From the NCBI GenBank assembly GCA_035557635.1, contig DATMDR010000061.1:44730-108729 (forward strand): a stretch of 64,000 nt of DNA. The letters run 5' to 3'. This DNA comes from Solirubrobacterales bacterium. GTDB taxonomy: Bacteria > Actinomycetota > Thermoleophilia > Solirubrobacterales > 70-9. Under the pieces are notes generated by a model. That model saw only the letters and a program-made list of their open reading frames with translations. It did no database searches and had not been told where the DNA came from. Of the stretch, positions 3,290-30,117 are shown in pieces. Each line of letters opens with the position of its first letter. Position 1 is the stretch's first letter. A program made the translations under genes and the position numbers.

Positions 3290-3414
3290 GGGGCCGCCGA
3301 TTCTAGGGAGGGGTGGCTGACGAAGCCCAAGCGTCGCCAGGCAAGGACGCAGGGAGCGTGGCGTGCTCTGCACGCGAGCGACTGAGGACGCCGCATGGCG
3401 GCGCTTGGGCTTCG

Positions 3415-9910: not shown

Positions 9911-10114
9911 TCAGACGCGATCGGGAGAGCGAAGCTCGGAAAGGTTGCCGCCCCAGCCAAGTCCCTCCGCTGCCAGCATCTCCTCGCTGCTAATCGACTC
10001 GCCGACAAGCCTGCGCAGGGCGAGATCGACGGCCTCGCGCTTGCTGCGCAATCGGTAGAGACGCATCGCATGATCCACCAACTCGTCGTCGATCTCGATA
10101 CTTGTCCTCGTCAT
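9911..10114 (-). CDS. VapB-family (DUF2191-like) type II antitoxin, no cognate toxin adjacent
   Basis: MTRTSIEIDDELVDHAMRLYRLRSKREAVDLALRRLV matches the VapB antitoxin N-terminal pattern. ATGA overlap with the stop of the upstream hydrolase fragment. Confidence 0.7.
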   Translation of the reverse strand: MTRTSIEIDDELVDHAMRLYRLRSKREAVDLALRRLVGESISSEEMLAAEGLGWGGNLSELRSPDRV

Positions 10115-12120: not shown

Positions 12121-15100
12121 CTAGCGGCTCACTGGTAGAACTGGCGTTTCTTCCAGCTGAGCCCTTACTCGATTAAGTAGATCCTTGAGGCTTGGACTTC
12201 GGTGTGGCTGTGCCGCCGTGGGCGGTGGATTCGGTGGAGGCGGCGACATCGTTGGGCCGTTGCCAGTAATGCAGCTGAAACCACACACGGCAAGGTCCCA
12301 CAGATTACAGAAATCAGCAAAGCATGAACCAAGTGAAACGATACCTTTACTCGCAGCGAGGCAGTGCTGAATCTTTGTGTACTTCATCGCTACGTTGCGT
12401 GCAGTGCAATGCCTTCTAATGCAAGTCCTGAGACACTGCACAATGCCTTCCCTCGGCCTAGTCGAGCATCCCGTTAGATCGAGCTGGTTTAGCGGATCTT
12501 GGTTCGCATAATCATATGAATTGGCCGAACCGCCCAAGACCCGATCAAGCGATGTAAAGCGACCCATCGCTGGAACATAGGTTCGAACGCCCATTTGAAC
12601 TATCCCCGAAGCAAACTCCGTCCGTCGCTGATGACTCCCGAGCCAACCATATCTTTTGGCTTCGCCTTTCGGTTTGCCGAACTCGTCGGACTCAAAGGTT
12701 GCTAGCAGTTTGGTGGCTTCTGGATCGAGGCTAGCCGTCGCAACGATGTCGCCATGCATGTTTGCCAACTGAAGAATCGTGCCCTGAGCGCTATCGTGCA
12801 GTGCCACCAGTTCTCCCCCAATTCCACTGATGGTGCGCGACCAGTTTGACCCCTGATCGATCCAAACTGGAGCGTCGGTACTGTTGGCGTAGTGATATAT
12901 TTCGGTACCCGATTTGGTGCCTGTTTGGACCCGTTGACGCTGTCGCAGGGATGCGTCGAGGTCGTAGGTGTTGGTGATTCCGTCCTGGGTCTGGCTGCGG
13001 ATCAGGTCGCTGCTGTAGTAGGTCGAGGTCAGCGTTCCCCCGCCTGAAAAGGCTTTGGGGAGCGTCGTGATCCTGCCGAAGTCGTCGTAGGCGATTTCAG
13101 TGCCGAGCAGGCGGTCTCCGGTGTCGTATTTGTATTCTTGGACGTTGCCTTTCGAGCTGATGTCGCAGGCGCCTTCAATGCCAGGTTCCCGCGTGATGAG
13201 AGCGGTGCGATTGGAGTTGGCATCGTAGTTGTAGGTGCGGGTCGTACACGAGCCGCCCTGCGGAGTGTCCTTGACCAGAGTGAGGCGACCTGCTTTGTCA
13301 TAGGAATATTGCTGAGAAGACAAGGCCGAGGTTTGACTGAGCCACTGCCCATGAATCGACCTCTCAACCTCGAAGTCGAGCCATGTACATTCGGAGACGC
13401 AATTCGTCGTCTTCTCGTAGGCTAGGTGGACGGACGCACCAGTCTCGTCGTAAGTGGTGGTTGCCGTGAGGCCGTTCGGGAAGTCCCGTTCGACCAAGTT
13501 GCCGTCGGCGTCATAGGTCGCGGTGAAGGTTCCTGCTGCGGAATCGTTCAGCTGCACGAGCAGGCCCGAGGTCGGGTCATAGGTGCGGGTCTGCACGCCC
13601 TTGCCATCGCTGGATATCACCGGGCGACTGAGCAAGTCATAGCCGGTGCTCGAGAGATTGCCGTCGGCGTCTTCGTAGCTGATCGGTCGCCCGAGCGTGT
13701 CGTAGACGGTCCTCGTCGCCTGGCGGTCGTAGCTGCTGGAGAGAACCCACTTCTGGATCCGGTCGTTGCCGGCGTCTGAGACCCAGACGTTGCCTGCTGA
13801 ATCAGCCGCGAGCCCTGATGGCCAGGTCAGGCTGAACTGGCCCTGGCCTGAGCCTGGCGCGCCGAACTTGGCGACGTATTTCCCCTCGGTGTCGAACTGC
13901 TGGACGCGACCGTTGCTCGCATCTAGGACCCAGACATTGCCTTTGGAGACCTCGACCGCATCCGGATTGATGAATTTGCCGTCGGTGTTGCCGTTGGAGC
14001 CGAACTGGAAAAGGAATTTGCCGGTCGCAGAGAAAACGCTGACGCGGTGTTTGGTCCAATCGGCGACCCAGACCTTGCCCTCGCCAACGTCAAGGCCAGC
14101 GGACTCGCCGAACTGGCCTTCGCCGGAGCCGGAGGAACCGACTGCTTTGATGAAGTTGCCTTCGGCGTCGAACTCCTGCACGCGGCCGCTGTAGTCGCTG
14201 ACCCAGAGCTCACCCTGGGCGTCGATCCCGATGCTCCTCGGCCCGTAGCCCGAGAATTTGCCATCGGTCGAGCCTAGGGAGCCGAATTCGTCTAGGTATT
14301 CTCCTTTGGTGTTGAACTTCTGGACACGGTGATTGCCCCTGTCGGCGACCCAGAGATCGCCGTTGGCATCGATCGCGATGTCCATCGGGTCACTGAGTTT
14401 GCCTTTGGCAGTCCCCAGGCCGCCGAACTCGAAGACGTAGTTCCCTGAGGAGTCGAGCTTCTGGACCCGGTTGTTGAGCCGGTCGACCACCCAGAGGTTG
14501 CCCTGGCCGTCGAAGGCGCTGCCGGCGGGATGGTTGAATTCTTTTTTGCCGGTGCCCGAGGAGCCGTAGGTGGCCGAGTAGTCGATGCTGGTTTTGCATT
14601 CGCTTTCGCAGACGAAGCGCTGGGTGGTCGGGCGGCCGGTGGCGGAGCCGTAGAGAGTCTCCGTCGTCGGGACCGCGACCCCGCCGCCTAGGCGTTTGAC
14701 CATCAGCGTCCGACCCGCTTCGTCGTAGGTCGTGATCGTCTTACGGGTCTTGGCGGGATCAGAGGTACCGCCGGGGCTTTCGATCACTTCGGTTGGCTGA
14801 CCAAGAGGGGAATAGGAGGCGTAATACGTCACTAGGAGGTCGGGTTGGCCTGCTGTTCCCGGTTGAGCCGCAGGCTTGACTTCGCAAGGCAGGCCCGTAA
14901 ACGCCGGTTTGGCATAGCACCGCGCTGGCCCCAGTGGATCATGGCCGTAGTAGACAGTCCGAGTCGATCGTGCATCCCCGCCGTTGGGATTTGCAGGCAA
15001 CCGTCTTTCGATTGGCAATCGACTCGTGTTGAAGGGGAGATACTCGATATGAGTTCGTAGTTTGAGTCCTTCCGGCTCAACTATTGTGTCGATTGGCAGA

Positions 15101-18100
15101 CGCAGGGTCCAGTTGTATTTCGTTTCCTTGACACGCTGATCTGCGTCTTTTCCTTCGCCTTTAACGCTTGCGCCAATGGTTTCCCGGGTTGGCAGATGAT
15201 ACTGAGGCGTCCCGGCAGGAGGAGGCGGTGCATTTTCGTCATCGTCATAGTTAATAGTGCGATGCCTTCGCGCCGGAACGACGGCGCCTGATTCCTCCAG
15301 GCGAGTAAGGTGCAACGGCCCCCATTCCTCGCGCAACTCGATGCCATCCGCAGAGAAGAGACGTTTAGTGTCGAGTTCTTCTGAGCGCGTGACCGATTTA
15401 GGGCCTTCCGCTAGGGCGCGTAGGCGGTTTTGAGGGCTGAGTTCACGTACGGTATTACCGTATTCGTCTGTTTCTGCTGTGGTAATTGATGGCCCCGAAG
15501 TTCCAGCGCCGGTTTCCGTGGCGGTATTGACCAGCAGACCTTCAGCATCCATGTAAAAGACGGTCGCGCGGGAGAAGCTACTGGGCGGATTTGCCGGAAC
15601 CTGATCGGGCGGAAACACGGCAGTTGCATCGACAGGAATGTCTTTCTGTCCCCATTTCGCGATGTCGGCAGCGCCCATTTCGTAGGGCGCACCGCTGCCG
15701 CTGATCGGTACCCCGTAGACGACGGTTGTCTGCGCGATGGATGGACTGCTGAGGAGGCTCGGTCGTTTGACGCTCACCAGGCGGCCATTTGCTTTCTCGC
15801 CGTCGTGGGAGCCGTATTCAAACGTCCACGGCTCCTCCCCCGGCGGCGTGATCGATTTGAGCTGCCCTGCTGCCTCGTAGGAGTAGGTCTCTTTAAGCGT
15901 TGGCGAGATCCGAGGGTCCCAAGCTTCGATGAGCCTGCCTTCTGAGTTGTATTTGTAGTTGGCTACCTGCCAGCTTTTCATCGCTGGGGTCGCACCGCTG
16001 CCAACAGCGGCGTGATATGTGATGGAGGCGAGGCGATCCCCGTAAGCTGCGGGGGCCCCCCAATTCGTCGCCGGTGCGTATTGGAACGTAAGCGTGCGAC
16101 ATCCAGGCATTACCGGGGCTTCTTTTTCCGTACATTCGTACGTCGAAGGCCCGATCACCATGATTAGCCGCCGGTTGCTGCCTTCGATTTTGTAAACCAT
16201 CCGCGTATTGTTGGCGCCGCTCCCTGTTTGAGAGACAGAGACTGGCAGATATTCAGTGCCACCGGAACTGTTTTCAAAGATCGTGCGGTTGCCATCGGGG
16301 TCAGTGAGAAAGAACTGATTTTCTTTCTTAGTCAGAAGCCAGCCGGACGCTTCGGGCGGGGAAATATAGCCGCCAGATCCATTTTGTTCGAATGCGTACT
16401 CGTCGCCGTTGAGATGGGTTAGCACAACATAGTTTTCAAGTCCTTCTATTTTTTCTTCTTCCGATACCACAATTTCACGCGCATGTCGCCATTCAGCCCC
16501 TCCTGCCGCTTCGACTGGAATGCCAGATTTCCAGCCACGGCCTAGCAGCCCGGTATCCGATGTTCCGGGATCGCGTGAGTTGTGAGTGCGAGAAAATTCC
16601 AGCGCAGTCTCAAAAACAGGAATTGAAATATCCGTCCTGCTAATGGAAAAATTTCCAGTAAGTAGATTGACAGAACCTGGGCCAACTGAGGCTGCGGCAT
16701 CCTGCGTACCACCCAAGTCGCGGTCAACTTTAGCTTCGACGGGAACGGTGTAGCCGGCAGCTGCGCCAGCACCATCCAATATCGCTCTGACCTGGATCGG
16801 GCCGCCAACTTTTTCAAGCGAGCTAGTTACGTGCGCCGCATCAAAGAAAAGCGGTGGGGTTTTCTGGCTAGCAACAACGGGAAGTGGCCATTTTTTGAGT
16901 TCTTCTCCCTGTGAATCCCGAACCAGACTAATCGGAACCGTTTGGAAGGGGCCTGTTTTCCCCTCCCTAAACTGATAGGTGACACCTGTCACGCCTGTTT
17001 CGGTCCAAGCAGCTTGGAGCTTGAGACGTCGCGCGGTCTGAGTCCCATCAGTTGGAGAAGTGACTTTGCTGGAGCTAGGAGCTTTGTCGTAATAGATAAC
17101 TTCCATGCGGGGCCGCTTGCTGGTGTCGACCGCAGCACTGGAATCGAAAGTCAGCGAGCGTTCTTTGCAAGCCGGCGAGCATTCGAGTTTCGTATCGTCG
17201 AGGAGCTTCAGCATCAAGCCCTGGTTGGGGAATAGAAGGCCGTTAACCCAGTTATCGACTAGGCTCGTCAGCCCAGGCCCGGAGAATTCCCACCAGCCCG
17301 CCTGGCCGCCGCGATCTTTGGTCAGTATCTGCGCGCCTTCGGAGGTGTAGTCGCCGCCGATCAGAGTCCACTTGAAGAGACTGCTGTACCTGTTCCAAAT
17401 CAACGTACTTTCCCAATTCTTTGTTGCCCGGCGGAGCTCGACTCCTTCCGTGTTGACGGCTGTAGCCGGCGCATGGACTTTGACCGCCGCCGCCATTATG
17501 TAGGGCTTTTTGCCGACGCCGTTGAGCGCGCTTAGATCGAACTTCAAGAGAGAGCGTGCCCATTCGTTGACGCCACTTGCCTGACGGTAGCGGGCATATA
17601 GTGCTTTTTGCCCGCCTGGACCACAGAGGCCCCAACCGTTTTTCCCTTCGAACTGTCCGGGGGGTACCCCGGGCGTTTTCGTGCCGCCAAAAGTGCAGTC
17701 GAGACTCGGGCTGTTGAGTTCGAGTGGGGGGTCGAGATGGATCGGCCAAGTCAGGTCTTCGCGCTTGAACCAGTCACCGTCGGCGTCGACCGTCAGTTCC
17801 CAGCTCTGCTCATCTACAGGCTGGAGTTCGTAATAGACGTCACGCGACACGCTCGGCTCGGGCGAGCTGTCGAGCAGCACTGGCGCTGGAATCGTGGCGA
17901 GCGACCGGTCGCTTGTGTCCCGGAACTCGATCGATCCGTCCTCGAGGAGCTTCGGGCTCAGGCCTTCCGACATCTCCAGGGCGAAGCGAAAGACGCGCGG
18001 CTCGGAGGGATCGGCGAGAACGATGTCCTCCTTGAACCCGTTGGCGAGGCTCGTCAGCTCGAACCGGGTGCCGCCGTCGGCGGTTTCGTAGCTCGCAGTG

Positions 18101-18564
18101 GCGCCTCGTACGTCTGCTGGTCTTGAAGGAGAATCCAGGAGGCGGGTCGCTATCCATCCGCCGCCGAAGCTGAGATGAACCGGCCCCTCTCCCATTCGTT
18201 CCGGCAAGGTGAGGTCGAAGGCATTGGGGCCATTGGTGAGGCCGGTGCCGTCGGATTGCTCTGCGAGGTCTTCGCCGATCGGCTTCCAGTCGCCCTCGGC
18301 ATCTCGATAGTGGATCGGGCTCTCGTAGAGGACGGTCCGAAGGGCTCCGCTGGAAAGGCGGAAGGTCTCTGAGGTCGCAGTGCGTCTTGCGTCCAGCTCG
18401 ACGCCGGTTTCTGACTCAGGCGGAGCCTCAAGCCGTTGCGAACTGCTCTCTTCTGGCTCTGCGATCACCTGTCCCGCTGACAGCGCACACAGCAGGATTG
18501 CCAATAGAACCGCCCAGCTCCCACGTCTTACCCCTCGCAGATTCTTCACTCCCCCACCTTTCAA
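12121..18564 (-). CDS. secreted RHS/YD-repeat polymorphic toxin with an internal NHL beta-propeller
   Basis: Signal peptide (WAVLLAILLCALSAGQVIA). Many YD repeats (YDxxGR/YxYDxxxR). Six NHL repeats. RHS-associated core ending YVPAMGRFTSLD...YDYANQDPLNQLDLTG. A 115-aa divergent C-terminal tail. Confidence 0.92.
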   Translation of the reverse strand: MKGGGVKNLRGVRRGSWAVLLAILLCALSAGQVIAEPEESSSQRLEAPPESETGVELDARRTATSETFRLSSGALRTVLYESPIHYRDAEGDWKPIGEDLAEQSDGTGLTNGPNAFDLTLPERMGEGPVHLSFGGGWIATRLLDSPSRPADVRGATASYETADGGTRFELTSLANGFKEDIVLADPSEPRVFRFALEMSEGLSPKLLEDGSIEFRDTSDRSLATIPAPVLLDSSPEPSVSRDVYYELQPVDEQSWELTVDADGDWFKREDLTWPIHLDPPLELNSPSLDCTFGGTKTPGVPPGQFEGKNGWGLCGPGGQKALYARYRQASGVNEWARSLLKFDLSALNGVGKKPYIMAAAVKVHAPATAVNTEGVELRRATKNWESTLIWNRYSSLFKWTLIGGDYTSEGAQILTKDRGGQAGWWEFSGPGLTSLVDNWVNGLLFPNQGLMLKLLDDTKLECSPACKERSLTFDSSAAVDTSKRPRMEVIYYDKAPSSSKVTSPTDGTQTARRLKLQAAWTETGVTGVTYQFREGKTGPFQTVPISLVRDSQGEELKKWPLPVVASQKTPPLFFDAAHVTSSLEKVGGPIQVRAILDGAGAAAGYTVPVEAKVDRDLGGTQDAAASVGPGSVNLLTGNFSISRTDISIPVFETALEFSRTHNSRDPGTSDTGLLGRGWKSGIPVEAAGGAEWRHAREIVVSEEEKIEGLENYVVLTHLNGDEYAFEQNGSGGYISPPEASGWLLTKKENQFFLTDPDGNRTIFENSSGGTEYLPVSVSQTGSGANNTRMVYKIEGSNRRLIMVIGPSTYECTEKEAPVMPGCRTLTFQYAPATNWGAPAAYGDRLASITYHAAVGSGATPAMKSWQVANYKYNSEGRLIEAWDPRISPTLKETYSYEAAGQLKSITPPGEEPWTFEYGSHDGEKANGRLVSVKRPSLLSSPSIAQTTVVYGVPISGSGAPYEMGAADIAKWGQKDIPVDATAVFPPDQVPANPPSSFSRATVFYMDAEGLLVNTATETGAGTSGPSITTAETDEYGNTVRELSPQNRLRALAEGPKSVTRSEELDTKRLFSADGIELREEWGPLHLTRLEESGAVVPARRHRTINYDDDENAPPPPAGTPQYHLPTRETIGASVKGEGKDADQRVKETKYNWTLRLPIDTIVEPEGLKLRTHIEYLPFNTSRLPIERRLPANPNGGDARSTRTVYYGHDPLGPARCYAKPAFTGLPCEVKPAAQPGTAGQPDLLVTYYASYSPLGQPTEVIESPGGTSDPAKTRKTITTYDEAGRTLMVKRLGGGVAVPTTETLYGSATGRPTTQRFVCESECKTSIDYSATYGSSGTGKKEFNHPAGSAFDGQGNLWVVDRLNNRVQKLDSSGNYVFEFGGLGTAKGKLSDPMDIAIDANGDLWVADRGNHRVQKFNTKGEYLDEFGSLGSTDGKFSGYGPRSIGIDAQGELWVSDYSGRVQEFDAEGNFIKAVGSSGSGEGQFGESAGLDVGEGKVWVADWTKHRVSVFSATGKFLFQFGSNGNTDGKFINPDAVEVSKGNVWVLDASNGRVQQFDTEGKYVAKFGAPGSGQGQFSLTWPSGLAADSAGNVWVSDAGNDRIQKWVLSSSYDRQATRTVYDTLGRPISYEDADGNLSSTGYDLLSRPVISSDGKGVQTRTYDPTSGLLVQLNDSAAGTFTATYDADGNLVERDFPNGLTATTTYDETGASVHLAYEKTTNCVSECTWLDFEVERSIHGQWLSQTSALSSQQYSYDKAGRLTLVKDTPQGGSCTTRTYNYDANSNRTALITREPGIEGACDISSKGNVQEYKYDTGDRLLGTEIAYDDFGRITTLPKAFSGGGTLTSTYYSSDLIRSQTQDGITNTYDLDASLRQRQRVQTGTKSGTEIYHYANSTDAPVWIDQGSNWSRTISGIGGELVALHDSAQGTILQLANMHGDIVATASLDPEATKLLATFESDEFGKPKGEAKRYGWLGSHQRRTEFASGIVQMGVRTYVPAMGRFTSLDRVLGGSANSYDYANQDPLNQLDLTGCSTRPREGIVQCLRTCIRRHCTARNVAMKYTKIQHCLAASKGIVSLGSCFADFCNLWDLAVCGFSCITGNGPTMSPPPPNPPPTAAQPHRSPSLKDLLNRVRAQLEETPVLPVSR
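13747..14545 (-). repeat. six tandem NHL-type repeats (coding) inside the RHS ORF
   Basis: GNLWVVDRLNNRVQKLD / GDLWVADRGNHRVQKFN / GELWVSDYSGRVQEFD / GKVWVADWTKHRVSVFS / GNVWVLDASNGRVQQFD / GNVWVSDAGNDRIQKW, spaced about 45 aa apart. Confidence 0.85.
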
Positions 18565-20929: not shown

Positions 20930-23900
20930 TTAGCGGCCGATCCCCAGGTCCCGGCCGAGATCGCGCGCTCTCCCGGCGTGCTGCCCAAGGCCGAGCATGC
21001 GCTGGGTCTCTAGAAGCCGCCGCCGCGTCGCCTCTTGGCGCGCTCGCTCGGCTCCCTGCTTCGCCTCCGCGCCAAACGCTCGGAACGGGTCCTTGATGCC
21101 GTGATCCTGGCGGTAGCGCTCGATCTGCGAGAGGCCGCGATCCCAAGCCTCCCGTTTGACCGGATCGCTCGGCCTCTCCCCCAGCTCGGCCTTCACGTAG
21201 GCGGGTGGGGATATCCGCGCCGCGACGATCGCCAGCTCGCGGCGCTGCGCGAGAACCTGATTGGCGACCGCCAGCTCGCGGCGCGCGGCCCGTCCCGACT
21301 CAGGCAGCTCGCGAATCTCGGCGTCGCGACGCGCGAGCGCATCGCGCCAGTTCTTCTCCAAGGAGTCGATACGTGCCAGCTCCTCGCGGCGCTGGCGACG
21401 CGGCAGCCCCTGCGCCGCCTCGCGCTCGACCTGGATCTGGTCGAGCCGCTTCCGCGCTTCCTCAAACCGCTTCTGCACCATGCGGCGCTGGCTTTCTGCG
21501 TTGGCCTCTCGTCCTGCCGCCACCAGTAGCTCACCGCGCCTTGCGACCAGCTCCTCGGTCGGCAGGCCCGAGAACTTCGAGCGCAGCGCCTCGTCGTGGG
21601 CGGCGACCTGGGCGCGGTCGCGCTCGGCGGCTTCGGCGATGTGCGGGATGCCCTCGCGCAGGTAGGGAGACTCCGGCGCGATCTCCTCGCGGTGGACCTG
21701 TATCTCCGGCGTGGCGTAGATGAACGTCTCCTCGCGGGTGCGCGAGGCGGCGACGTATAGCTCCTGCTTGTCCATCGAAGGGTCGGCGGCGACGAATGCA
21801 CGATCGACGCTCGTGCCCTGTGCCGAGTAGGTGGTGACGGCGTAGGCGTGTTCGAGCGCCGGGGCTTCTGAGTGGCGGTTGGTCTGAGCGAGATAGTCGG
21901 CTCCGACCTCGACCCGCTTTGCCTGGTCGATGCCGTCGAGGGTCATGCGGCGCTCTGCCGCGTCCACCTCGGCAATCCGCCAGCGCTCGCGGTTGAAGAT
22001 CTCGGCGCTGCGGTCGTTGACGCGGGTGATGACGAGATCGCCGGCGGCGAAGCTCGCCTCCCCCACTTCGATCTCCTGGGCTCCGAGCTGCCCGGCCTGG
22101 CGGCGAACCTCGCGCGCCATCTCGTTCAAGCGCCTGACCTCGGCGTTCTGCTTGGCGACCATTACCGCGTCCTCGCCGCGCTCGAACGCCTCGTGCCAGT
22201 CGCGGACCATCGCCTCGCGGCGCTCCTCGGCGTTCGGGGCGACCGTGACCCTCTCGGATGAGCGGTAGAGGCTCAGCGCTTCGCCACCCTCGCCTTCCCT
22301 GATCTGCTTCGCCGCCACGCGGTCGAGCTCGTGGCGGTGGCGGATTACCTCGTCCAGTTGGATCGGGTCGGTGCGCTCGGCAAGAGCGCGGAACAGGCCG
22401 CCCGCTTCGATCTCGCCGAGCTGCTCGGGGTCGCCGACCAGGACGAGCTTCGCCTGGGCTCGCTCGGCGTGGGAGACGAGTCGAGCGAGGGTGGCCGAGT
22501 CCACCATCCCGGCCTCGTCGACCAGGAGGACCGAGCCGTGCGGCAAGCCCTCTTTGCCTTCATGCTCGGCGCGGTCGAGCGCCAAGAGCAGGCTGGCGAT
22601 GCTCGACGCCGGCAGTCCCTCCGCGCGCATCACGTTCGCCGCCCGCCAGGTCGGCGCGGCGGCGCGCAGCTCGATCCCGGCTTCGGCCCAGCCCTCAGCC
22701 GCGGCGACGACGGCGAAGGTCTTGCCGCTGCCCGCCTCGCCGATCACCACGGCGATCCCTTCGGGGTTGATGAGGAGGCGGCGGACCATCTCGCGCTGGT
22801 CGTCCTTCAAGGTCGGGCGTGTGTGAATGACACGGGCCGCGATCAGCTCGCCCGCAGGCGTCGGTCCCTGCGCCCGCATTCGCTCGACCGCCGCCAGCGC
22901 TTCGCGCTCAAGCTCCCAGATGCGCCGGGTGGTGAAGCGGGGGCCTTTGGCAGCCTCGGCGATCTGGATCACCGACTCCGACGCGAGGAAGGCGTCGGCC
23001 AGGCGCTCCACCTCGGCTCCCGGCGCACCGGATGGAAGCGAGTCGGCAACCGCCTGGATCGCGTCTCGCCTGTCGAAGTGGGACGCAGCCGCCGTGACCG
23101 CACGGTCTACCTGCTGGGTAGAGACCGTGCGGCTCACGGCGGCGCTCGGCCTCAGCGCTGCCTCCGGGTCGAAGGTGCGCTCGATCGTCTCGCGGTCAAG
23201 GCCGATCTCATCCGCCCGCGAGCGCCAGCGCCCAAGCAGCTCACCCCGGCTGACGTCTCGCTCCTTCGGCTGGCGCGTGGCAAGCGCGGCGACCTGCATC
23301 GAGCGCGCCGAGGCGTCGGCACCCGCCGCCTCGAGTATTTCCGCGCGACGGGTGGAGAAGGCGCGCAGATGCTCGTCGGCGAAGCCCGCGATCTCGGCGA
23401 TGCCCTTGCGCGTCGGTTGCCACTCGACGCCGAGGCGGCGGGTCAGCTCATGGCGCAAGTGCGCCTCGTAGATGTAGCTGGCGGTCTTGGCGTGGTCGTA
23501 GATCGCCGGGTGGTAGAGGCGGGTCCAGCGCCCGTCCGGTCCCCTAGTCGCGTTGGCGATCAGGACGTGGGTGTGGAGCTGTGGGTCGCCGTTCCGCGAG
23601 GAGCGGTGGACGTAGCCGGCGGCGAGGTAGCCATTGCCCTTGACGAACTCCGAGCCTCCCGCCCCACGCCTCGTCCAGCACGCCTCGCGCTGCATGTAGT
23701 CGAGGGCGGCTCCTACCGCTTCGCGGTGGGCGGCATTGACCTCGATGGCGGCGACCGGTCCGCCCAGGCCCCAGAGCAGGGAGACCGACTTAGGAGCCGA
23801 GAAGGTGAGATCGAAGCCGGGGACCGAGCCGTTGGCGGGGACGCCGCGCATCCCGACCAAGGGCTCGCCGTCGACCGGGCTGCGCCCGGTCAGCATCGCT

Positions 23901-24070
23901 TCGAGCTGGGCCGCCTCGACCTCCCCAGAGAGACCCAGATCCTCGGCGGCGTCGCCGAGCCATTGCCCGGCGACCTCGCCCTCGCCGGAGTAGTAGTCCT
24001 CAGCGCCTTCGGCGACCTTGTCGAGGTAGTAGCGCTCCTGGCCTTTGCCGAGCTTGCCGATGGAAAGCAT
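20930..24070 (-). CDS. MobF/TrwC-type conjugative relaxase fused to a RecD/TraA-like helicase
   Basis: N-terminus MLSIGKLGKGQERYYLD (catalytic Tyr region). His triad GDPQLHTHVLIAN. Helicase Walker A GEAGSGKT and LLVDEAGM. Start taken at ATG 24070; the track ORF extends to 24118. Confidence 0.9.
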   Translation of the reverse strand: MLSIGKLGKGQERYYLDKVAEGAEDYYSGEGEVAGQWLGDAAEDLGLSGEVEAAQLEAMLTGRSPVDGEPLVGMRGVPANGSVPGFDLTFSAPKSVSLLWGLGGPVAAIEVNAAHREAVGAALDYMQREACWTRRGAGGSEFVKGNGYLAAGYVHRSSRNGDPQLHTHVLIANATRGPDGRWTRLYHPAIYDHAKTASYIYEAHLRHELTRRLGVEWQPTRKGIAEIAGFADEHLRAFSTRRAEILEAAGADASARSMQVAALATRQPKERDVSRGELLGRWRSRADEIGLDRETIERTFDPEAALRPSAAVSRTVSTQQVDRAVTAAASHFDRRDAIQAVADSLPSGAPGAEVERLADAFLASESVIQIAEAAKGPRFTTRRIWELEREALAAVERMRAQGPTPAGELIAARVIHTRPTLKDDQREMVRRLLINPEGIAVVIGEAGSGKTFAVVAAAEGWAEAGIELRAAAPTWRAANVMRAEGLPASSIASLLLALDRAEHEGKEGLPHGSVLLVDEAGMVDSATLARLVSHAERAQAKLVLVGDPEQLGEIEAGGLFRALAERTDPIQLDEVIRHRHELDRVAAKQIREGEGGEALSLYRSSERVTVAPNAEERREAMVRDWHEAFERGEDAVMVAKQNAEVRRLNEMAREVRRQAGQLGAQEIEVGEASFAAGDLVITRVNDRSAEIFNRERWRIAEVDAAERRMTLDGIDQAKRVEVGADYLAQTNRHSEAPALEHAYAVTTYSAQGTSVDRAFVAADPSMDKQELYVAASRTREETFIYATPEIQVHREEIAPESPYLREGIPHIAEAAERDRAQVAAHDEALRSKFSGLPTEELVARRGELLVAAGREANAESQRRMVQKRFEEARKRLDQIQVEREAAQGLPRRQRREELARIDSLEKNWRDALARRDAEIRELPESGRAARRELAVANQVLAQRRELAIVAARISPPAYVKAELGERPSDPVKREAWDRGLSQIERYRQDHGIKDPFRAFGAEAKQGAERARQEATRRRLLETQRMLGLGQHAGRARDLGRDLGIGR

Positions 24071-24717
24071 CACCCTCTCTGTCCAGCGGGAGCGCGTTTT
24101 GCCTCGCACACTTAACAAAGTGATAGGGCGTGAGGGTGGTTGCTGTTGGCTGTTGGTACCGGGGCTGGAGCTTTCTCAGGGCTGCTTCTGCTGCCCCTGA
24201 GAACTGGGCTTCCTGCCTGATTCCTTCCTTTGTCTTTGTGGTTTGGCTTTGGCTGGCTGGTTGATTGGCTGCGTTTGGCTGGTTGAGTTCATCAGCCTGG
24301 GGAGGCCGACTTCGCAAAGTCCGGCGCTGGGGGGAGAGAAGCGCCGCCAGCCGGGCTAGCCTTTTTCTATGACCACCATGAAGGTGGTTAGTTAGGAGGA
24401 ATTTGGACACTTCACGATGGAAGACCAGAGAGGCATAAGAGACCATGACCGGCCACGCAAGCGAATGGCTTGCGGTGGGCCTGACCCCTTTCGTTCTCGC
24501 CGGGGCCGTGATGGCTGCGCTGTGCTTGATCGCACTTCTGCGGCGCACCCCATTCGAGGGCGAGCTTCGGGTCTTCTGGCTCCTTTGCCTAAAGCTGCGA
24601 ACGCAGCCGCCGAGGGACGACGCCTGAAGGTGTCGTTAATCTCGGGTCCGCCAGCGAAGCTGGCTGAGGATCTCATCTCTAGCGCTTGCCGGATGCCCTA
24701 GATCGGCCTGGCAGGTA

Positions 24718-24756
24718 GTCGCGCAGAGGGCTGCCGCCCTGGCAGCCCTCTGCGAC
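24718..24756. other. strong GC-rich hairpin in the relaxase/NTase intergenic region
   Basis: CGCAGAGGGCTGCC (24722-24735), loop GCCCT, GGCAGCCCTCTGCG (24741-24754): a perfect 14-bp stem. Confidence 0.6.
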
Positions 24757-25077
24757 TCGTTCTCTGGACGTAGGAAAACCCCGGGGCGTTGAGGCGACCT
24801 GCGCCGACACGATCTCGGAATCCGAAGTCGAGCACGGGATGGGCGGCACAGCGGCCTCCGTCCCTCGCTGCCCGAAGGTCCGTCAACAGCGATCTATAGA
24901 ACTCCGGGCGTCGTCCTCGTATCGCTTGTGGGCCGGGCGGGGGGTTCATCGCCTCCGTCCGGCCTCAAAGTACCCGCCGACGGGCTTGCAATCATCGTCT
25001 CGAGCCGATTGGGGGGGTGATGTCTCCTGAGAAGACCGGCTCGCCGATATGAGGCCGATTAAGAAAGCAGGTTCTAA

Positions 25078-26142
25078 ATGTTTCAGGAGGCGAAGGCCGA
25101 AAAGGCCAGCGATGTAGAAGCAGTTCTCGACGAAGTCCGCATCGAGATCTCCGCCAACGACGATGATCTCCGAGAGACGCGGAAGCGCCGTGATCTCGTC
25201 CGCGACGCTGCCGAATCGTTCGTGGGGGTTCTCCGGACCTTCAACTCGGGATCGGTCGCACACGGGACCGCCAACAACCCGGTCGACGACGCGGACGGGG
25301 GAGCCGTCCTCAACCGCGTCTCTTACCCCGATCTCGGTCCCGATAGCGACGAGGAAGGCGGCCCCGACGACCTGATGCGGGAGATGCGCGACCACGTCAT
25401 GGCGATCGTCCGGAAGGACTACCCGAAGGCCCGCAGTCGGCTGACGAAGAGGGCGATCCTGATCGAGTTCCACAAGCCGAACTCGGACGGCGTCGATCCA
25501 TCGGTCGACCTCGTTGTCGCGCTGACGCGGAAGGACGCTGTCGGCCTCTGGATCCCGAACCGGGACCGCGACGAATGGAACGCCTCCCACCCGGAGGAGC
25601 ACACCCGGCTCCTGGTCGCGAAGCCGAAGGGCCTCCGCGTTCTCCGCGCCCGGGTTATCCGCCTGTCGAAGGCCGCGATAAAGAAGGACTCGACTCCGGC
25701 GCTGATCTCGTTCAACGTCGAGGCCCTCGCCCTCAAGATCGTCGACGACGAGAACGAAGGGCTCGCCGAGGCGCTCCAGCGCTTCTTCGATGTCGCGGCG
25801 GACGAGATCAAGGCCCGCTATACGGAAGACCCGGCCGGGGTCTCGGGGAGAATCAAACTCCCCGAAGGGATGACCCGGTCCCGCTCCTCCCGGCGGCTTC
25901 GCTTCTTCGCCGACAAGGTCCAAGAGGCGATCGACGCCGAGTCTCGGGAGGACGCCGAAGCCGCGCTCGCTGAGCTGTACCCGGACGAGTTGCCGGGCAC
26001 CCCGAAGTCGAGCAAGAAGAGCCTCGCCGAGGCGCTCAACGCCGGAGACGAGAAGCGCGTCCGGACTGCGGCCTCGGTCGCACCGGCCGCAGCGTTCAAG
26101 CCTGGGATGAGGTCCCACGGCGATGACCCGGACGCGGCGTAA
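25078..26142 (+). CDS. Pol-beta superfamily nucleotidyltransferase, CD-NTase/SMODS-like
   Basis: G58-S59 (FNSGSVAHGT), D71-x-D73 (PVDDADGG), D144 (PSVDLVVAL), then W..SHPEEH and RVIRLSK helices. Low-complexity tail of about 50 aa. Confidence 0.7.
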   Translation: MFQEAKAEKASDVEAVLDEVRIEISANDDDLRETRKRRDLVRDAAESFVGVLRTFNSGSVAHGTANNPVDDADGGAVLNRVSYPDLGPDSDEEGGPDDLMREMRDHVMAIVRKDYPKARSRLTKRAILIEFHKPNSDGVDPSVDLVVALTRKDAVGLWIPNRDRDEWNASHPEEHTRLLVAKPKGLRVLRARVIRLSKAAIKKDSTPALISFNVEALALKIVDDENEGLAEALQRFFDVAADEIKARYTEDPAGVSGRIKLPEGMTRSRSSRRLRFFADKVQEAIDAESREDAEAALAELYPDELPGTPKSSKKSLAEALNAGDEKRVRTAASVAPAAAFKPGMRSHGDDPDAA

Positions 26143-26599
26143 ACCGCCCTGGTACCAGCACTTTCCGACGCGGCTTCGCTTCGAGCGCGAGGCCCGGGCC
26201 GCCTACCCCCACATCTCTATGCGAGAGGTAGGCGCTCGGAAGCGCTCGGAGGTCGCCTATGGGTTGAAGATCCCGGTCCCTGAGTACGAGGACCGGAGCA
26301 TCGAACTCGTGTTCCCCCGGATGATCGCGAGGCCGGAATTCACCCGCGTCTACGCCGACGGGCCGACCGAATCCCCGCATCGGTACCGGGCGAGCGAGCG
26401 GGATAAGCAGGGGCGATCCTCGCTCTGTATCTGGGATCCCGACGATCCACCGGAACTTCGCTGGGTCCCGGAGGACGGTCTCCTCTCGCTGATCGAGATG
26501 ACCCGGCTCCACCTCTTCAAGGAGGCGTACTGGCGGGAGACCGGCGACTGGCCGGGCGCGGAGGCCCCGCACCCAACGGCGGAGCCAAAGCCTTGCTGA
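26123..26599 (+). CDS. stand-alone E2/UBC-like protein (putative catalytic Cys102)
   Basis: 20-nt overlap with the NTase gene. Its order of elements mimics the UBC fold: N-terminal helix (RLRFEREARAAYP), beta-strands (VAYGLKIPVP..RSIELVFP), SPHRY flap (HPN-like), SSLCIWDP (Cys, TGT 26426-26428), then W and the helix LLSLIEMTRLHLFKE. Confidence 0.6.
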   Translation: MTRTRRKPPWYQHFPTRLRFEREARAAYPHISMREVGARKRSEVAYGLKIPVPEYEDRSIELVFPRMIARPEFTRVYADGPTESPHRYRASERDKQGRSSLCIWDPDDPPELRWVPEDGLLSLIEMTRLHLFKEAYWRETGDWPGAEAPHPTAEPKPC

Positions 26600-27174
26600 C
26601 CGCTGTCGCCCATGCCGCCTCGGAGGGGGGCGGCGAAGGTTTGAAGGTTGTCCTCCCTCTGATCGGTTCGGCGATCGCCCTCGTCGGGGTTCTCATCACC
26701 CTCTACGTCAATGGCCGCCGGGCCGAGCGAACTCGTCGGCGGGACCTCTACTCCGCGGGTTGGGCCGCAGTCCAGGCGTACAAGGAGTTCGCCTTCGCGG
26801 TTCGGCGCCGGAACTCGGAGGATCGTGCCGGGGAGCGGGTCCGCATCTCGACGGCGATGGGTGAGGTCCAGAAGGAACTCGCCTACTACGAGGCGATGAT
26901 CGGGCAGGAGCGCGTGAGTGAGTTCATCGCCGCGGTAACTGGCCGGGATCTCCGCGGTGCTGTCGCCGACGCCTACCTGACCCTCGTCGCCGAGACTCGG
27001 AAGGTCGCCGGGGGGATCATCAAACTTTCCTGGAACGAGGAGCCGATCGGAGCGGACAGCGAAATGCACGCCCCCGAGATCGCTCAGGAGCTGGCGGTGC
27101 TCAAGCCGGTCGAGATGGCCTTCCTCGACACGGTCTCCGACGACGTCGGCGGGCGTCGGCCGGACGCCGGTTAG
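26593..27174 (+). CDS. single-pass membrane protein of unknown function (candidate effector)
   Basis: TTG start overlaps the E2 gene by 7 nt (alternative TTG near 26641 after GGAGGGGGG). TM helix VVLPLIGSAIALVGVLITLYV, then about 150 aa of charged helical sequence. Confidence 0.6.
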   Translation: MLTAVAHAASEGGGEGLKVVLPLIGSAIALVGVLITLYVNGRRAERTRRRDLYSAGWAAVQAYKEFAFAVRRRNSEDRAGERVRISTAMGEVQKELAYYEAMIGQERVSEFIAAVTGRDLRGAVADAYLTLVAETRKVAGGIIKLSWNEEPIGADSEMHAPEIAQELAVLKPVEMAFLDTVSDDVGGRRPDAG

Positions 27175-27448
27175 GTCCGACCCCGAGAGCGACGTAATGA
27201 TCGACTGAGCCGGGGCTAGTTCAACCCCTCGGCCCAAGAGGGTCATCGTGCACTTCGCGCCCGGTTTGCCGACAGGTATTGCTGCAAACAAATAACAGTG
27301 GGGGGACGTGCCCGACGCGGACAAATGAGCGGGGGGCGATAACCGGGCTTTCCTGACTTATTTCGATGCAATGCGCGGTTTTCGCGGACAAGGGGATTGA
27401 GGAACATGACCCTGAAATCCCCGGCATCCGCCGCAAACCCGCCTATCA

Positions 27449-27554
27449 CCCGGGCAGTGAGCCCGGCCATACCTGGCGGCAGATGCTCAAGCCCGAGCAA
27501 AGATGCCCGGGCAGAGCTTTCTCGCCCGGGCTATCGTAAGAGCGACGCCCGGGC
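27449..27554. promoter_or_regulatory. cluster of four CCCGGGC palindrome-containing sites upstream of the RHH/recombinase genes
   Basis: CCCGGGC at 27449-55, 27506-12, 27525-31 and 27548-54. Confidence 0.4.
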
Positions 27555-27699
27555 TTACCTGGGCCGAGATGCCGGGGCTCTTTCCAATGCAAGCGCCTGG
27601 CCGGCCGCCCCCCTACGGCCCCCCACAAGGGGGCGCACCCCGGCGCAGGGCTGCGCCCTCTTCACAAGCGCGGCGGACTGCTCTAGAACCGGGAGCTAG

Positions 27700-27966
27700 A
27701 TGCCCGCCGAGAGCCCAAAGCCGACCGCAGCATTCGCAAACCCTTGCATCGAGATCACGCCAACGCCGAAGCAGTACGAACGGCTCTGCCTCGATCTCAG
27801 GAAGCTTCGCGAGCGTGGCGCGACCTCCAACACCGACGCGATCCTCGCCGCCGTTCGAGATGCCGCCGCCCGCCGTAAGATGCCTGGCGACAAAGCAAAA
27901 GCCGGGCGGCGCGGTAACGCCCCCGGCACGGCACCAGGAGGTTCCCCTGATGCAAGAGCAGCGTAG
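27700..27966 (+). CDS. small putative ribbon-helix-helix protein (regulator/RDF candidate)
   Basis: GGGAG sits 6 nt upstream of the ATG. CIEITPTPKQYERL (strand) plus helices LRKLRERG...AILAAVRDAA. Overlaps the recombinase start by 17 nt. Confidence 0.45.
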   Translation: MPAESPKPTAAFANPCIEITPTPKQYERLCLDLRKLRERGATSNTDAILAAVRDAAARRKMPGDKAKAGRRGNAPGTAPGGSPDARAA

Positions 27967-29572
27967 CCAGCAGGCCGTTATCTACGCAGCGAAGTCCACC
28001 GAGGACAAGCACGGCAGCATCCCCGATCAGCTCGTCAAGAACCGGCGACTGGCCGACAGAGAAGACTGGTCAGTAGCCGACGAATTTTCGGACGAGGGTT
28101 TCTCCGCCTACAGCGGCAATCGAGGGCCGGGCTTGGAGGAAGCCAAGGCGCTCGCAATTGAACTCGCCGAGCTACACGGCGAGTGCTTTCTTGTCGCTCT
28201 TCACAGCGACCGGGTTGCCCGTGGAGCTGGCGACGCTCCCGGCGCCGCCGATCATCTTGTTGAGGTCGTCGCCCACTTGCGCCGCCACGGCGTGCGGCTC
28301 CGTACGGTCGAGGACGACTTCTTTGCCGACGATCGCATCGGGCTTCTCATGGCCGCAGTCCAGGGACAGCGCAACAGCGAGGACAGTCGTCGCAAGTCCG
28401 AGTCGGTTAGAGCTGGAATGAAGCGACGCGCAGAGCGCGGCTTGTTCAGCGGCCCGGCTCCTTATGGATATGACTACGCGAGCGACGGTAGCGGCCTGGT
28501 GATCGTAGATGCCGAGGCCATCGTGGTACGTCGAATCTTCACGGAGTATGTCGCGGGGCGCAGCCTGTCTGGAATCGCAGTCGGCTTGCACCGCGACGGA
28601 GTCAAGACCAAGAAAGGCTCCCTCTGGCGACAGTCAACGGTCTCAGGCATCGTTCGGAATCACGCCTACATCGGCAAGGTGACTTACCAGCGCGAAGCTT
28701 TCGATGGAGTCCATGAGCCAATCATCGACTCCGAGCTTTGGGAGCAAGCATCGCAGCTCATCGCGGCCACTCCGACTAAGCGCGGCAGACCCCCGAAGCG
28801 GAAGCGCCACCTCTTCACGCACGGATTCCTCCGGTGCGGAACCTGCGGGGAGGCGATGGTCCCGCGTACCCGGCCGGAAAGCGGCTACGAGTTCTACGAA
28901 TGCAATGGGCGAAAGCTGCACGACTGCAAAGTCGGCGCAATCAGGAGAACCGACATAGACGAAGGAGTGCTCGCGCACTTCGAGCAAACGACGCTCGACC
29001 TTGAAGCTACGCGCGCGCAGATCGTCGCCGCTATGGATCGCAATGCGACCGAGGTCGAAGCCCTGCAAGTCGCCGCAGAGCAGGAGGCACAGAAGGCAGC
29101 AGCGCGCCTCGCCAAGGTGAAGCACGATTACACCCACGGCGATCTAACGGCTGCCGAGTGGCGCGAACTAAAGTCAGAGCTTGAGCCCGAAGCCGCCGCC
29201 GCCCAGGCCGAGGCAGATCGCCTGAAAGAGCAGGTTGCCGCCGTCAAATCAAGCGCTGCACTCGGCGATGCCGAATCCGAGGTTCTAGACCAGTTGGCGC
29301 AGCTCCGCGCCGCAGTTGCCGGGAAGGTATCGGCAGCAGACAGCATCGAAGCCGTCAGGGCCGTTCTGATGCGGCTCTTTGACCGATTCATTTTCCATTC
29401 CGAGCTTCCCGCAACTGCGCACGTCGAGCTAATCGGCTATCGCTATTGGATCGAGCCAGTGATGAGCGAGCGAGCCATCGCCGGCTACGACGAGAAGATG
29501 AAGCCGGTCCTAGCGCGCCAGCCGCTTGGGCAAGCCAAAAACAATTACGGCGTCGGCTCCCCGCCGCGGTAG
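27950..29572 (+). CDS. large serine recombinase (integrase)
   Basis: AGGAGG lies 8 nt upstream of ATG 27950. Resolvase catalytic domain AVIYAAKSTEDKHGSIPDQ. Recombinase domain, Cys-rich zinc-ribbon region (CGTCG...C..C) and coiled-coil C-terminus. The last 4-5 codons and the stop lie beyond the predicted crossover. Confidence 0.9.
   Translation: MQEQRSQQAVIYAAKSTEDKHGSIPDQLVKNRRLADREDWSVADEFSDEGFSAYSGNRGPGLEEAKALAIELAELHGECFLVALHSDRVARGAGDAPGAADHLVEVVAHLRRHGVRLRTVEDDFFADDRIGLLMAAVQGQRNSEDSRRKSESVRAGMKRRAERGLFSGPAPYGYDYASDGSGLVIVDAEAIVVRRIFTEYVAGRSLSGIAVGLHRDGVKTKKGSLWRQSTVSGIVRNHAYIGKVTYQREAFDGVHEPIIDSELWEQASQLIAATPTKRGRPPKRKRHLFTHGFLRCGTCGEAMVPRTRPESGYEFYECNGRKLHDCKVGAIRRTDIDEGVLAHFEQTTLDLEATRAQIVAAMDRNATEVEALQVAAEQEAQKAAARLAKVKHDYTHGDLTAAEWRELKSELEPEAAAAQAEADRLKEQVAAVKSSAALGDAESEVLDQLAQLRAAVAGKVSAADSIEAVRAVLMRLFDRFIFHSELPATAHVELIGYRYWIEPVMSERAIAGYDEKMKPVLARQPLGQAKNNYGVGSPPR
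29528..29565. other. attR-like junction of the integrated element
   Basis: Element arm CCAAAAACAATTACGGCGTCGG, then CTC (29557-29559), then the host coding sequence resumes (CCC GCC GCG GTA = G G R Y on the minus strand). Confidence 0.6.
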
Positions 29573-30117
29573 ACCAGCGGCCCGCTGTAGCCGCCCCCGC
29601 TCGCCATCTCCGGTACTGCCCCGGGCGCCGAAGCCGTGGCCGGCGCGGCGGCTTCAGCGACCGCCGAAGCTTCTATCTCGGTGCGGTCGTCACCTACGTC
29701 GAGACTGGCGACGATGAGCGCCCGAGCCCGCACCGGAGCGAAGGAGGAACGATCCGGAAAGTCGACCCGCAGCCGCGCCGGCGCGACGCCGTTCGCCTCC
29801 GCAGCCTCCCTCGCCGCGCCGCGCGCTCGCCACAGGTAGAAGGCCTTCGGCAGGTGACGCGGGTTCGGCAGGCCGTTGGGAAGGGTCGGCGGAGTGAGCA
29901 GGCGCGGCAGGTCGTCGCGCATCGAGCGTGCGGCCGAGATCGCAGCCAAATCTGCCGCCCGCTGCACCCGTCCCTTGCCGGTCACCGCGCCGGCGATGGC
30001 TACCAGCGCCAGCGCCCCGGCGAGCAGGACGAAGACGCCGCCCAAGACCAGCAGCAGCGCCTGCCCCTCCTCCCTGCGCGCGTCCATGCGCCCACCCTGC
30101 CCGGGGCGAGTGCACAT
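29557..30117 (-). pseudogene. 5' portion of the split gene: TadE/TadG-like N-terminal membrane anchor region
   Basis: EEGQALLLVLGGVFVLLAGALALVAIAG...RVQRAADLAAISAA matches the Flp-pilus TadE/G-like N-terminal pattern. The track ORF runs to 29545 through 4 element-derived codons (PTP then stop). Confidence 0.7.

Follow-up and report, generated by a model that had tools for sequence, protein, structure and literature searches.

A probable E2-only CBASS operon in a Solirubrobacterales bacterium

A three-gene operon of a Solirubrobacterales bacterium is very probably a type II-short (E2-only) system of cyclic-oligonucleotide-based antiphage signalling (CBASS), an abortive-infection operon carried by an integrated mobilisable element. 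The operon occupies positions 25078-27174 of a 64,000-nucleotide stretch of the GenBank assembly GCA_035557635.1 (contig DATMDR010000061.1, positions 44,730 to 108,729), which is called the window below and to which all coordinates refer unless another locus is named. The first gene (25078-26142, plus strand, 354 amino acids, ATG start) encodes a nucleotidyltransferase of the cGAS/DncV-like type (CD-NTase), the oligonucleotide cyclase of CBASS. The second gene (26123-26599, plus strand, 158 amino acids, ATG start) encodes a minimal, stand-alone E2, which is Cap2-like without an E1 domain, and the third gene (26593-27174, plus strand, 193 amino acids, TTG start) encodes an effector of the 1TM class. 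The assignment to E2-CBASS is carried by the stand-alone E2 with its Cys and two His residues and by a conserved Gly near the end of the cyclase. The cyclase gene adjoins a conserved effector gene at every locus where this could be seen (19 of 19 genome loci and two plasmid loci), which is the mark of a CBASS operon, and the effector has one predicted transmembrane (TM) helix and matches catalogued 1TM effector models.

A first-pass annotation, made from the letters of the window alone, had suggested an E2-only CBASS as the cargo of a mobile element, and this suggestion is now supported by matches to hidden Markov models (HMMs), catalytic residues, the C-terminal Gly, and gene linkage. It had also offered an unclassified signalling-defence module belonging to no described subtype. 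That alternative is not supported, since type II short or E2-CBASS is already catalogued and accounts for 616 of more than 5,000 systems (bioRxiv 10.1101/2022.05.25.493364).

The three overlapping same-strand genes were recovered with exactly the open reading frame (ORF) coordinates of the first-pass annotation, and the overlaps are 20 nt between the cyclase and E2 genes and 7 nt between the E2 and effector genes. All three ORFs have a coding signature in their codon-position GC content, with GC3 of 0.83-0.85 against GC2 of 0.44-0.52. Shine-Dalgarno-like motifs precede the two internal starts: GAGG lies 10 nt 5′ of the gene 2 start, and GGAG lies 8 nt 5′ of the gene 3 start. A promoter and terminator scan of positions 24100-28000 gave nothing above chance; an Rfam scan of the whole window gave no match, and a tRNA search found none. 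As had been noticed at first sight, no E1, JAB, SAVED, nuclease, or phospholipase family was matched in the trio or in the immediately flanking ORFs by the Pfam, NCBIfam, and PADLOC scans.

The cyclase and its place among CD-NTases

Gene 1 matches the PADLOC cyclase model PDLC00777 over essentially its full length (3.8e-99, residues 13-350). The sole Pfam family found for it is SMODS, with 31.5 bits against a gathering cutoff of 26.5. The NCBIfam model CBASS_cyclase_b gives 96.5 bits, which is below its curated cutoff of 200, and three of the four weak NCBIfam matches are CD-NTases. These sub-cutoff scores would explain the label "hypothetical protein" that RefSeq attaches to the plasmid-borne homologues. 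No match of gene 1 to the MNT, KNTase, or AbiEii families was found in Pfam, NCBIfam, or PADLOC.

I examined the active site in an alignment of 14 sequences, consisting of the window cyclase and 13 homologues from genome loci. The motifs S57-G58-S59 and D71-x-D73 (25246-25296, plus strand) and the third acidic residue D144 (25507-25509, plus strand) are invariant columns of this alignment. Judged from these residues, the GS/DxD/D set of CD-NTase catalytic residues is intact in gene 1. The residues that had been named in the first-pass annotation of the trio are all present, and the catalytic ones among them are invariant among the homologues.

Which clade does the cyclase belong to? The family profile built from the 14 sequences was searched against all PDB sequences, and matches were taken to E <= 10. 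The best match is PaCdnD (6P8U, 6P82, and 6P8J; 8e-18 to 7e-16), followed by 9NTN, a chain named "CdnD" (3e-10), by E. coli CdnC (6P80; 1e-4), and by cyclic AMP-AMP-GMP synthase (7LJL, 7D48, and 7TO3; about 0.05). Chance-level matches aside, the PDB matches are CD-NTases only. No chain named clade G, and no enzyme recognised as clade A, B, or E, appeared at E <= 10. The three best entries are the Pseudomonas aeruginosa CdnD, a member of group D5 in clade D (PMC8096243). The cyclase is therefore placed nearest to clade D, a tentative assignment because it comes from a ranking against solved structures and not from a phylogeny. Clade G supplies about 74% of E2-CBASS cyclases (PMC12948482); membership in it is typical of E2-CBASS but does not define it, and the window cyclase is not a member by this ranking.

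PaCdnD, a type III CBASS enzyme, is the closest solved homologue and is colinear with the window cyclase over about 275 residues, with the same GS/DxD/D layout. It is activated by HORMA, regulated by a Pch2/TRIP13 ATPase, and partnered with the NucC nuclease, and it lacks the C-terminal extension of about 60 residues that bears the terminal Gly motif of the window cyclase. For the activation of the enzyme, a protease-sensing loop of the EcCdnG kind was considered and is not proposed, since the cyclase aligns colinearly with PaCdnD and appears to have no obvious insertion of about 30 residues.

A conserved Gly and a removable tail at the cyclase C-terminus

The first-pass annotation had described a low-complexity tail of about 50 residues at the end of the cyclase. 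Such a tail exists, but it is not featureless: it ends in a motif whose Gly is invariant throughout the family. In the window cyclase the motif is R345-S346-H347-G348 (26110-26121, plus strand). Gly348 is invariant and the surrounding tail is variable. All 19 genome loci with a cyclase have the pattern R-[SA]-[YFHW]-G, as do the two plasmid loci, and 1-8 variable residues follow the Gly among the homologues. The window cyclase ends in MRSHG followed by DDPDAA, a six-residue tail read from the sequence (26122-26139, plus strand). Its close relatives end in RSYG followed by DD and further residues, the Micromonospora homologue in TRAYG followed by GRSPR, one further genome homologue in VRSYG followed by a single S, and the Rhodococcus plasmid homologue in PRAYG followed by VPPGGSDD. 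The E2 start codon (26123) lies one base 3′ of the Gly348 codon, so that DDPDAA is encoded wholly inside the 20-nt overlap of the two genes.

By analogy with the Serratia marcescens system described below, conjugation to the E2 is predicted to take place at Gly348, and the DDPDAA tail is predicted to be trimmed off by the E2. A locus of an Acidimicrobiales bacterium (OZ241331.1, 4517-6001 of the extracted locus) has an in-frame cyclase-E2 fusion of 494 amino acids, which is either a true fusion or the product of an assembly frameshift. In this ORF the E2 part begins directly after TRAYG, and the next gene, that of the 1TM protein, overlaps the ORF by 1 nt. Natural cyclase-E2 fusions are mentioned in the literature (PMC12948482), and the window family shares this feature with E2-CBASS if the fusion is genuine. 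The fusion is suggestive with regard to the formation of a cyclase-E2 adduct.

The stand-alone E2

The PADLOC E2 model PDLC00867 matches gene 2 essentially over its full length (7.6e-35, residues 4-152). Conservation was read from alignments of 16 and 36 homologues. His86 in SPHR (26378-26380, plus strand) and Cys102 in SLCIW (26426-26428, plus strand), the latter corresponding to LCxW in the family, are invariant. His150 in EAPH (26570-26572, plus strand) is conserved in at least 90% of the sequences, and Lys156 (26588-26590, plus strand) follows six residues later. The other invariant residues are W104, W114, H130, E134, W143, and G145. A Solirubrobacterales metagenome-assembled genome (MAG) encodes a protein with 100% identity to the window E2.

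These residues may be compared with those of the S. marcescens E2 (SmE2), an 18-kDa protein (PMC12948482). The S. marcescens cGAS ends in Tyr405-Gly406 followed by the single residue Glu407 (bioRxiv 10.1101/2022.05.25.493364; PMC12948482). SmE2 strips the residues that follow Gly406, even when these are a fused MBP or GFP, and links Gly406 to itself by a thioester to Cys101 and by an isopeptide bond to Lys159 (Yan et al., bioRxiv 10.1101/2022.05.25.493364; PMC12948482). Cys101 and His87 are essential for the tail cleavage and the covalent linkage, His152 tunes the interconversion of isopeptide and thioester, and the two His residues are confined to the E2s of E2-CBASS, being found neither in Cap2 E1-E2 fusions nor in eukaryotic E2s (Yan et al., bioRxiv 10.1101/2022.05.25.493364). 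By number, H86, C102, H150, and K156 of the window E2 parallel H87, C101, H152, and K159 of SmE2; K156 lies six residues past H150, and K159 of SmE2 seven past H152. The first-pass annotation had regarded the very small size of the E2 as an oddity. On the contrary, about 160 amino acids is normal for the E2-CBASS class.

An AlphaFold2 (AF2) model of the E2 has a mean predicted local distance difference test (pLDDT) of 87 and a predicted template modelling score (pTM) of 0.83. It consists of a helix, four strands, an extended loop that bears the Cys, and one long helix; this may be a minimal UBC-like layout without the last helices, an interpretation that the model supports weakly. When the model was compared with the PDB by Foldseek, the UEV domain of TSG101 came first (E 0.069, which is non-significant; probability 0.98; template modelling score 0.45), and UbcH8, an RWD domain, and UbcH7 stood below it. 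Neither SmE2 nor any other CBASS E2 is among the fold matches listed. Since the UBC/UEV matches are non-significant, the link between the window E2 and SmE2 rests on the PADLOC match and the matching residues. NCBIfam has no match for the E2 or the effector. The Pfam scan gave no family for the window E2 even at E <= 1; the model may be missing from the copy used, or the thresholds may differ. Most of the database homologues of the E2 (P0092 and others) bear the precomputed Pfam tag PF26395.1.

Could gene 1 belong to the non-signalling nucleotidyltransferases (MNT, KNTase, or AbiEii types) while gene 2 is something other than an E2, so that the trio would form a toxin-antitoxin-like or unclassified module? 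The CBASS cyclase models of NCBIfam score below cutoff, Pfam gives no family for gene 2, and the fold matches of gene 2 are non-significant, all of which would fit such a module. In contrast, no MNT or AbiEii match was found in the three databases scanned, whereas all matches of gene 1 in PADLOC, Pfam, and PDB, together with three of the four weak ones in NCBIfam, are CD-NTases. The E2 match is full-length (7.6e-35), and two features, the His/Cys/His set in the E2 and the invariant Gly near the cyclase C-terminus, are specific to E2-CBASS. Gene 1 thus groups with signalling CD-NTases and gene 2 is matched by CBASS E2 models. The PADLOC matches, the invariant residues, and the PDB ranking of the profile effectively refute the non-signalling module, to which I give almost no credence, and the assignment of the two genes to E2-CBASS is retained.

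Conserved linkage and distribution of the trio

Is this gene order kept in other genomes? The effector alignment was searched against one genome per species (GTDB), and 22 loci were obtained. Nineteen genome loci extend far enough upstream, and in every one of them the cyclase, E2, and 1TM genes stand in the same order on one strand; the remaining three of the 22 end at contig borders. The co-occurrence of the three genes, which the first-pass annotation had put forward as a check, is thus kept across other genomes. The junctions within the trio are mostly overlapping or abutting. The hosts are Solirubrobacterales, Micromonospora, Kribbella, Amycolatopsis, Actinomycetospora, Protofrankia, Acidimicrobiales, other Actinomycetota, and one Chloroflexia MAG. 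The trio was also found on the annotated linear plasmids pRWAY01 of Rhodococcus and of Streptomyces longwoodensis.

When the flanking ORFs of 25 loci were clustered, only the trio was broadly shared, and no recurrent relaxase or recombinase cluster was found. The same clustering gave no E1 or JAB gene conserved beside the related loci. No relatives of the cyclase were found in phage genomes.

A sub-clade of Micromonospora, Protofrankia, and Streptomyces has an IrrE/ImmA-type Peptidase_M78 gene (3.5e-9) directly upstream of the trio (2896-4200 in locus L007, 2148-3188 in locus L024, and equivalents in loci L008, L009, and L021), and one or two further conserved genes also stand directly upstream of the trio in this sub-clade. 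The M78 gene resembles the CapP regulator of the CapH/CapP pair of CBASS (bioRxiv 10.1101/2022.04.27.489752). For the operon in the window, regulation of the CapH/CapP type was rejected, since an IrrE-like gene is absent from the window.

The 1TM effector

Gene 3 matches two PADLOC models of 1TM effectors (PDLC00666, 3.4e-18; PDLC00665, 1.7e-7). As the first-pass annotation had noticed, it is a single-pass membrane protein: its sole hydrophobic segment lies at residues ~19-41 (26647-26715, plus strand), with a Kyte-Doolittle value of 2.58 against 0.97 for the next-best stretch. The C-terminal flank of this segment is rich in Arg (5 Lys or Arg per 15 residues), from which an N-out/C-in topology is predicted, so that the short N-terminus would be outside and the remaining ~150 residues would be cytoplasmic. 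In the CBASS classification of Millman et al. 2020, 1TM is one of the effector classes. The largest class of CBASS effectors, with more than 40%, is that of the membrane proteins, 1TM included (PMC12480259). When 1.84 billion representatives, clustered at 50% identity, were scanned in full with HMMER, 899 clusters of the effector family were obtained at E <= 1e-3, of which 579 reached E <= 1e-10.

An AF2 model of the effector, made on 29 homologues, has a pLDDT of 89.3 and a pTM of 0.78. A continuous helix of residues 15-71 includes the TM segment, and the helices 78-104, 120-148, and 161-185 pack as a bundle. Foldseek gave only generic helical bundles (designed proteins, talin/vinculin, and the four-helix bundle of chemoreceptors), the best at E 0.16, and no functional inference is drawn from these matches. 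By Foldseek the effector has no recognisable nucleotide-binding fold, and by sequence it has only a chance-level match in the PDB. The single-pass protein of unknown fold of the first-pass annotation is placed by PADLOC in a catalogued effector class.

The alignment of 29 effector sequences has a group of invariant residues near the first inter-helix loop, namely Y63, E65, R72, R73, E81, R82, R84, and Q93, with R71 near-invariant. In the same region, R71-R72-R73 and E81-R82-V83-R84 (26803-26844, plus strand) form an Arg-rich loop that is placed between the model helices 15-71 and 78-104. Further invariant residues are A139, G140, W147, and D155. The loop is a reasonable candidate for a nucleotide-binding site, since its positive charge would suit a phosphate-rich ligand.

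It might be argued that gene 3 is only a membrane anchor or a sensor for the cyclase-E2 complex and that the effector lies elsewhere or does not exist, since no nucleotide-binding or enzymatic fold is recognised in the bundle and its closest generic folds include the sensor domains of chemoreceptors. However, the PADLOC effector models match gene 3, which is also the only other gene conserved with the cyclase and the E2. CBASS operons need an effector, and membrane proteins are the commonest class. In addition, the bundle would by the predicted topology lie on the cytoplasmic side, in the compartment in which the signal is made. An anchor or sensor role of this kind is very unlikely, and gene 3 is treated as the effector below.

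The mobile element around the operon

Pfam agrees with the first-pass annotation on the genes that flank the operon. On the left is a TrwC-type relaxase with a RecD-like helicase domain (20930-24118, minus strand; TrwC 4e-83, AAA_30 1.3e-51), and on the right is a large serine recombinase (27503-29572, plus strand; Resolvase 1.5e-13, Recombinase 3.3e-21, Zn_ribbon_recom 8.2e-10). In the recombinase ORF no Pfam domain starts before residue 158; the true start of the gene is therefore probably near 27.95 kb, and about 770 bp of apparently non-coding DNA would follow the 1TM gene (in the interval 27175-27970). The genes to the left of the operon, namely the relaxase-helicase, an S-adenosylmethionine-dependent methyltransferase, an ArsR-type regulator, an RHS/NHL protein, and a VanY+SLT hydrolase, lie in a stretch of lower GC content (0.53-0.65 against ~0.70 in the flanks). 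To the right, the recombinase gene and a convergent TadE/G-like gene (29545-30117, minus strand), which opens a Tad-type chromosomal region, overlap at their 3′ ends (29545-29572). The right border of the element probably lies at this overlap. The arrangement supports the idea of an integrated mobilisable element, roughly 22 kb long, that has the operon as cargo.

Since the operon lies between a relaxase and a recombinase and its relatives occur on large linear plasmids of actinobacteria, the trio might mainly serve the mobile element itself, as an addiction or exclusion module by which cells that have lost the element, or have taken up a competing plasmid or integrative and conjugative element, are killed, and not defend the host against phages. 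The flanks argue otherwise. The mobile context of the window operon is not common to the other loci, where across the 25 loci only the trio is broadly shared. The failure to find homologues in phage genomes also stands against this idea, and defence systems often ride on mobile elements without serving their maintenance. I regard a role in service of the element as very unlikely, and an anti-phage operon that travels as cargo accounts better for these observations.

Some other features of the element region were recorded. The RHS/NHL-repeat protein (2147 amino acids; 12121-18564, minus strand; Pfam NHL 1e-30, RHS_repeat 3e-18, and DUF6531) sits in a low-GC stretch (0.53-0.60 against ~0.70) and is probably a polymorphic toxin of the same element. 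A 239-residue ORF downstream of it (11349-12068, minus strand), which has no Pfam match, could be its immunity gene. The intergenic stretch of about 960 bp (24119-25077) that separates the relaxase and cyclase genes, which are divergent, has a lower GC content (0.62) and no Rfam or promoter-consensus match. Within it, a perfect 14-nt inverted repeat (24722-24735 and 24741-24754) with a 5-nt loop could be an oriT-type hairpin or a terminator hairpin. The VanY+SLT gene (10111-10917, minus strand) encodes a fusion of a VanY D-Ala-D-Ala carboxypeptidase and an SLT lytic transglycosylase, a type of cell-wall hydrolase that is frequent cargo of conjugative or mobilisable elements. At the left edge of the low-GC region, two ORFs of 307 and 216 amino acids without Pfam matches (7827-9390, plus strand) occupy the expected place of the element's left border and of any transfer functions.

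A proposed mechanism and the points that weigh against it

The following scheme is modelled on S. marcescens cGAS-E2 and on other membrane effectors of CBASS. Cys102 and His86 of the E2 would cut off DDPDAA and join the exposed carboxylate of Gly348 to Cys102 as a thioester. Gly348 may then be moved to a lysine, for example Lys156 of the E2 itself or one on another cyclase molecule. The covalent link to the E2 would hold the cyclase in a primed or regulated state. Upon phage infection, the cyclase would make a cyclic oligonucleotide. A cyclic trinucleotide such as cyclic tri-AMP (cAAA) is the best guess, though a weakly founded one, because cAAA is the product of PaCdnD and EcCdnC (bioRxiv 10.1101/694695), the nearest among the characterised enzymes. 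The signal may bind the cytoplasmic bundle of the 1TM protein, probably at the Arg-rich loop. Binding would lead to oligomerisation, the TM helices would disrupt the membrane, and the cell would die before the phage is released.

Several points weigh against the assignment or against parts of this scheme. As to the cyclase, the NCBIfam score lies below the curated cutoff, and the enzyme stands closer to clade D than it does to clade G, so that details of the regulation of the Serratia cyclase (SmCdnG) may not transfer to it. As to the E2, no Foldseek match to the PDB reached E <= 0.001, and neither the single sequence nor the profile of 16 sequences has a meaningful sequence match in the PDB. 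Its equivalence to SmE2 rests on the PADLOC models together with residue numbers and motif order, with no direct alignment, and a Lys in the E2 tail occurs in only about 10 of the 16 aligned sequences. As to the effector, the model matches generic bundles only, so ligand binding by its bundle stays conjectural. The scheme names no infection trigger for the activation of the cyclase. Finally, a literature search found no experimental study of this operon or of any 1TM CBASS effector, and no published ligand, structure, or mechanism for the 1TM class.

A wider claim may be ventured more tentatively. The 1TM protein would be a receptor of a new kind for cyclic oligonucleotides, in which the TM helix runs on into the cytoplasmic helical bundle and the Arg-rich loop reads the ligand, and the clade-D-like cyclase would represent an actinobacterial branch of E2-CBASS that signals by cyclic trinucleotides in place of cGAMP and has its cyclase propeptide encoded in a gene overlap. 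I would put the chance of this somewhat below even.

Comparison with known CBASS

The window operon resembles the Serratia E2-CBASS (Yan et al., bioRxiv 10.1101/2022.05.25.493364; Xiao et al., mLife 2026, PMC12948482) in having a stand-alone E2 of about 160 amino acids without an E1 or JAB partner. The two cyclases also seem alike in an extended C-terminal region that ends in an aromatic residue or His followed by Gly and by a tail that would be removable. In contrast to SmCdnG, which has 407 amino acids, belongs to clade G, and makes cGAMP, the window cyclase has 354 amino acids and comes closest to clade D. After the Gly it has a tail of six residues, where the Serratia cyclase has one, and its Gly is preceded by His instead of Tyr. 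The window effector is a 1TM protein, and the host is a Solirubrobacterales actinobacterium and not an enterobacterium. Against the Serratia system, the one example that has been studied, there are thus four differences, namely the cyclase clade, the tail length, the effector, and the host.

Canonical type II CBASS has a Cap2 E1-E2 fusion and a Cap3 JAB peptidase. What it would have in common with the window operon is a cyclase C-terminus that is conjugated, in the manner of ubiquitin, by way of the E2 Cys, so that signalling is regulated. The window operon lacks both the E1 adenylation domain and the JAB peptidase, and, unlike the canonical system, its E2 has the two His residues that are reported to give the E2s of E2-CBASS a protease-like activity.

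Gene 3 is like the TM effectors of the Millman et al. classification (1TM, 2TM, and 4TM) in being a small membrane protein encoded by the last gene of the operon and in having a ligand-sensing part that is predicted to be cytoplasmic. The TM effectors Cap15 and Cap14 were reportedly found by Duncan-Lowey et al. in 2021 to act via membrane disruption. Unlike effectors of the Cap15 and Cap14 types, gene 3 has a soluble domain that is all-helical and continuous with the TM helix in the model, and is neither a beta-barrel nor a SAVED domain.

Significance

The current picture of CBASS is unchanged by this operon, which has a catalogued architecture and an effector of a catalogued class. It is a well-delimited actinobacterial example of E2-only CBASS on a mobilisable element. 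By analogy, the hallmarks that were defined in Serratia, namely the aromatic-Gly handle, the trimmed tail, and the His/Cys/His E2, would extend to cyclases outside clade G. The 1TM effector class is mechanistically unexplored, and the main practical value of the operon is as an entry point to this family of ~900 representative clusters at 50% identity, for which the AF2 model of the effector and the invariant Arg cluster offer directly testable mutants.

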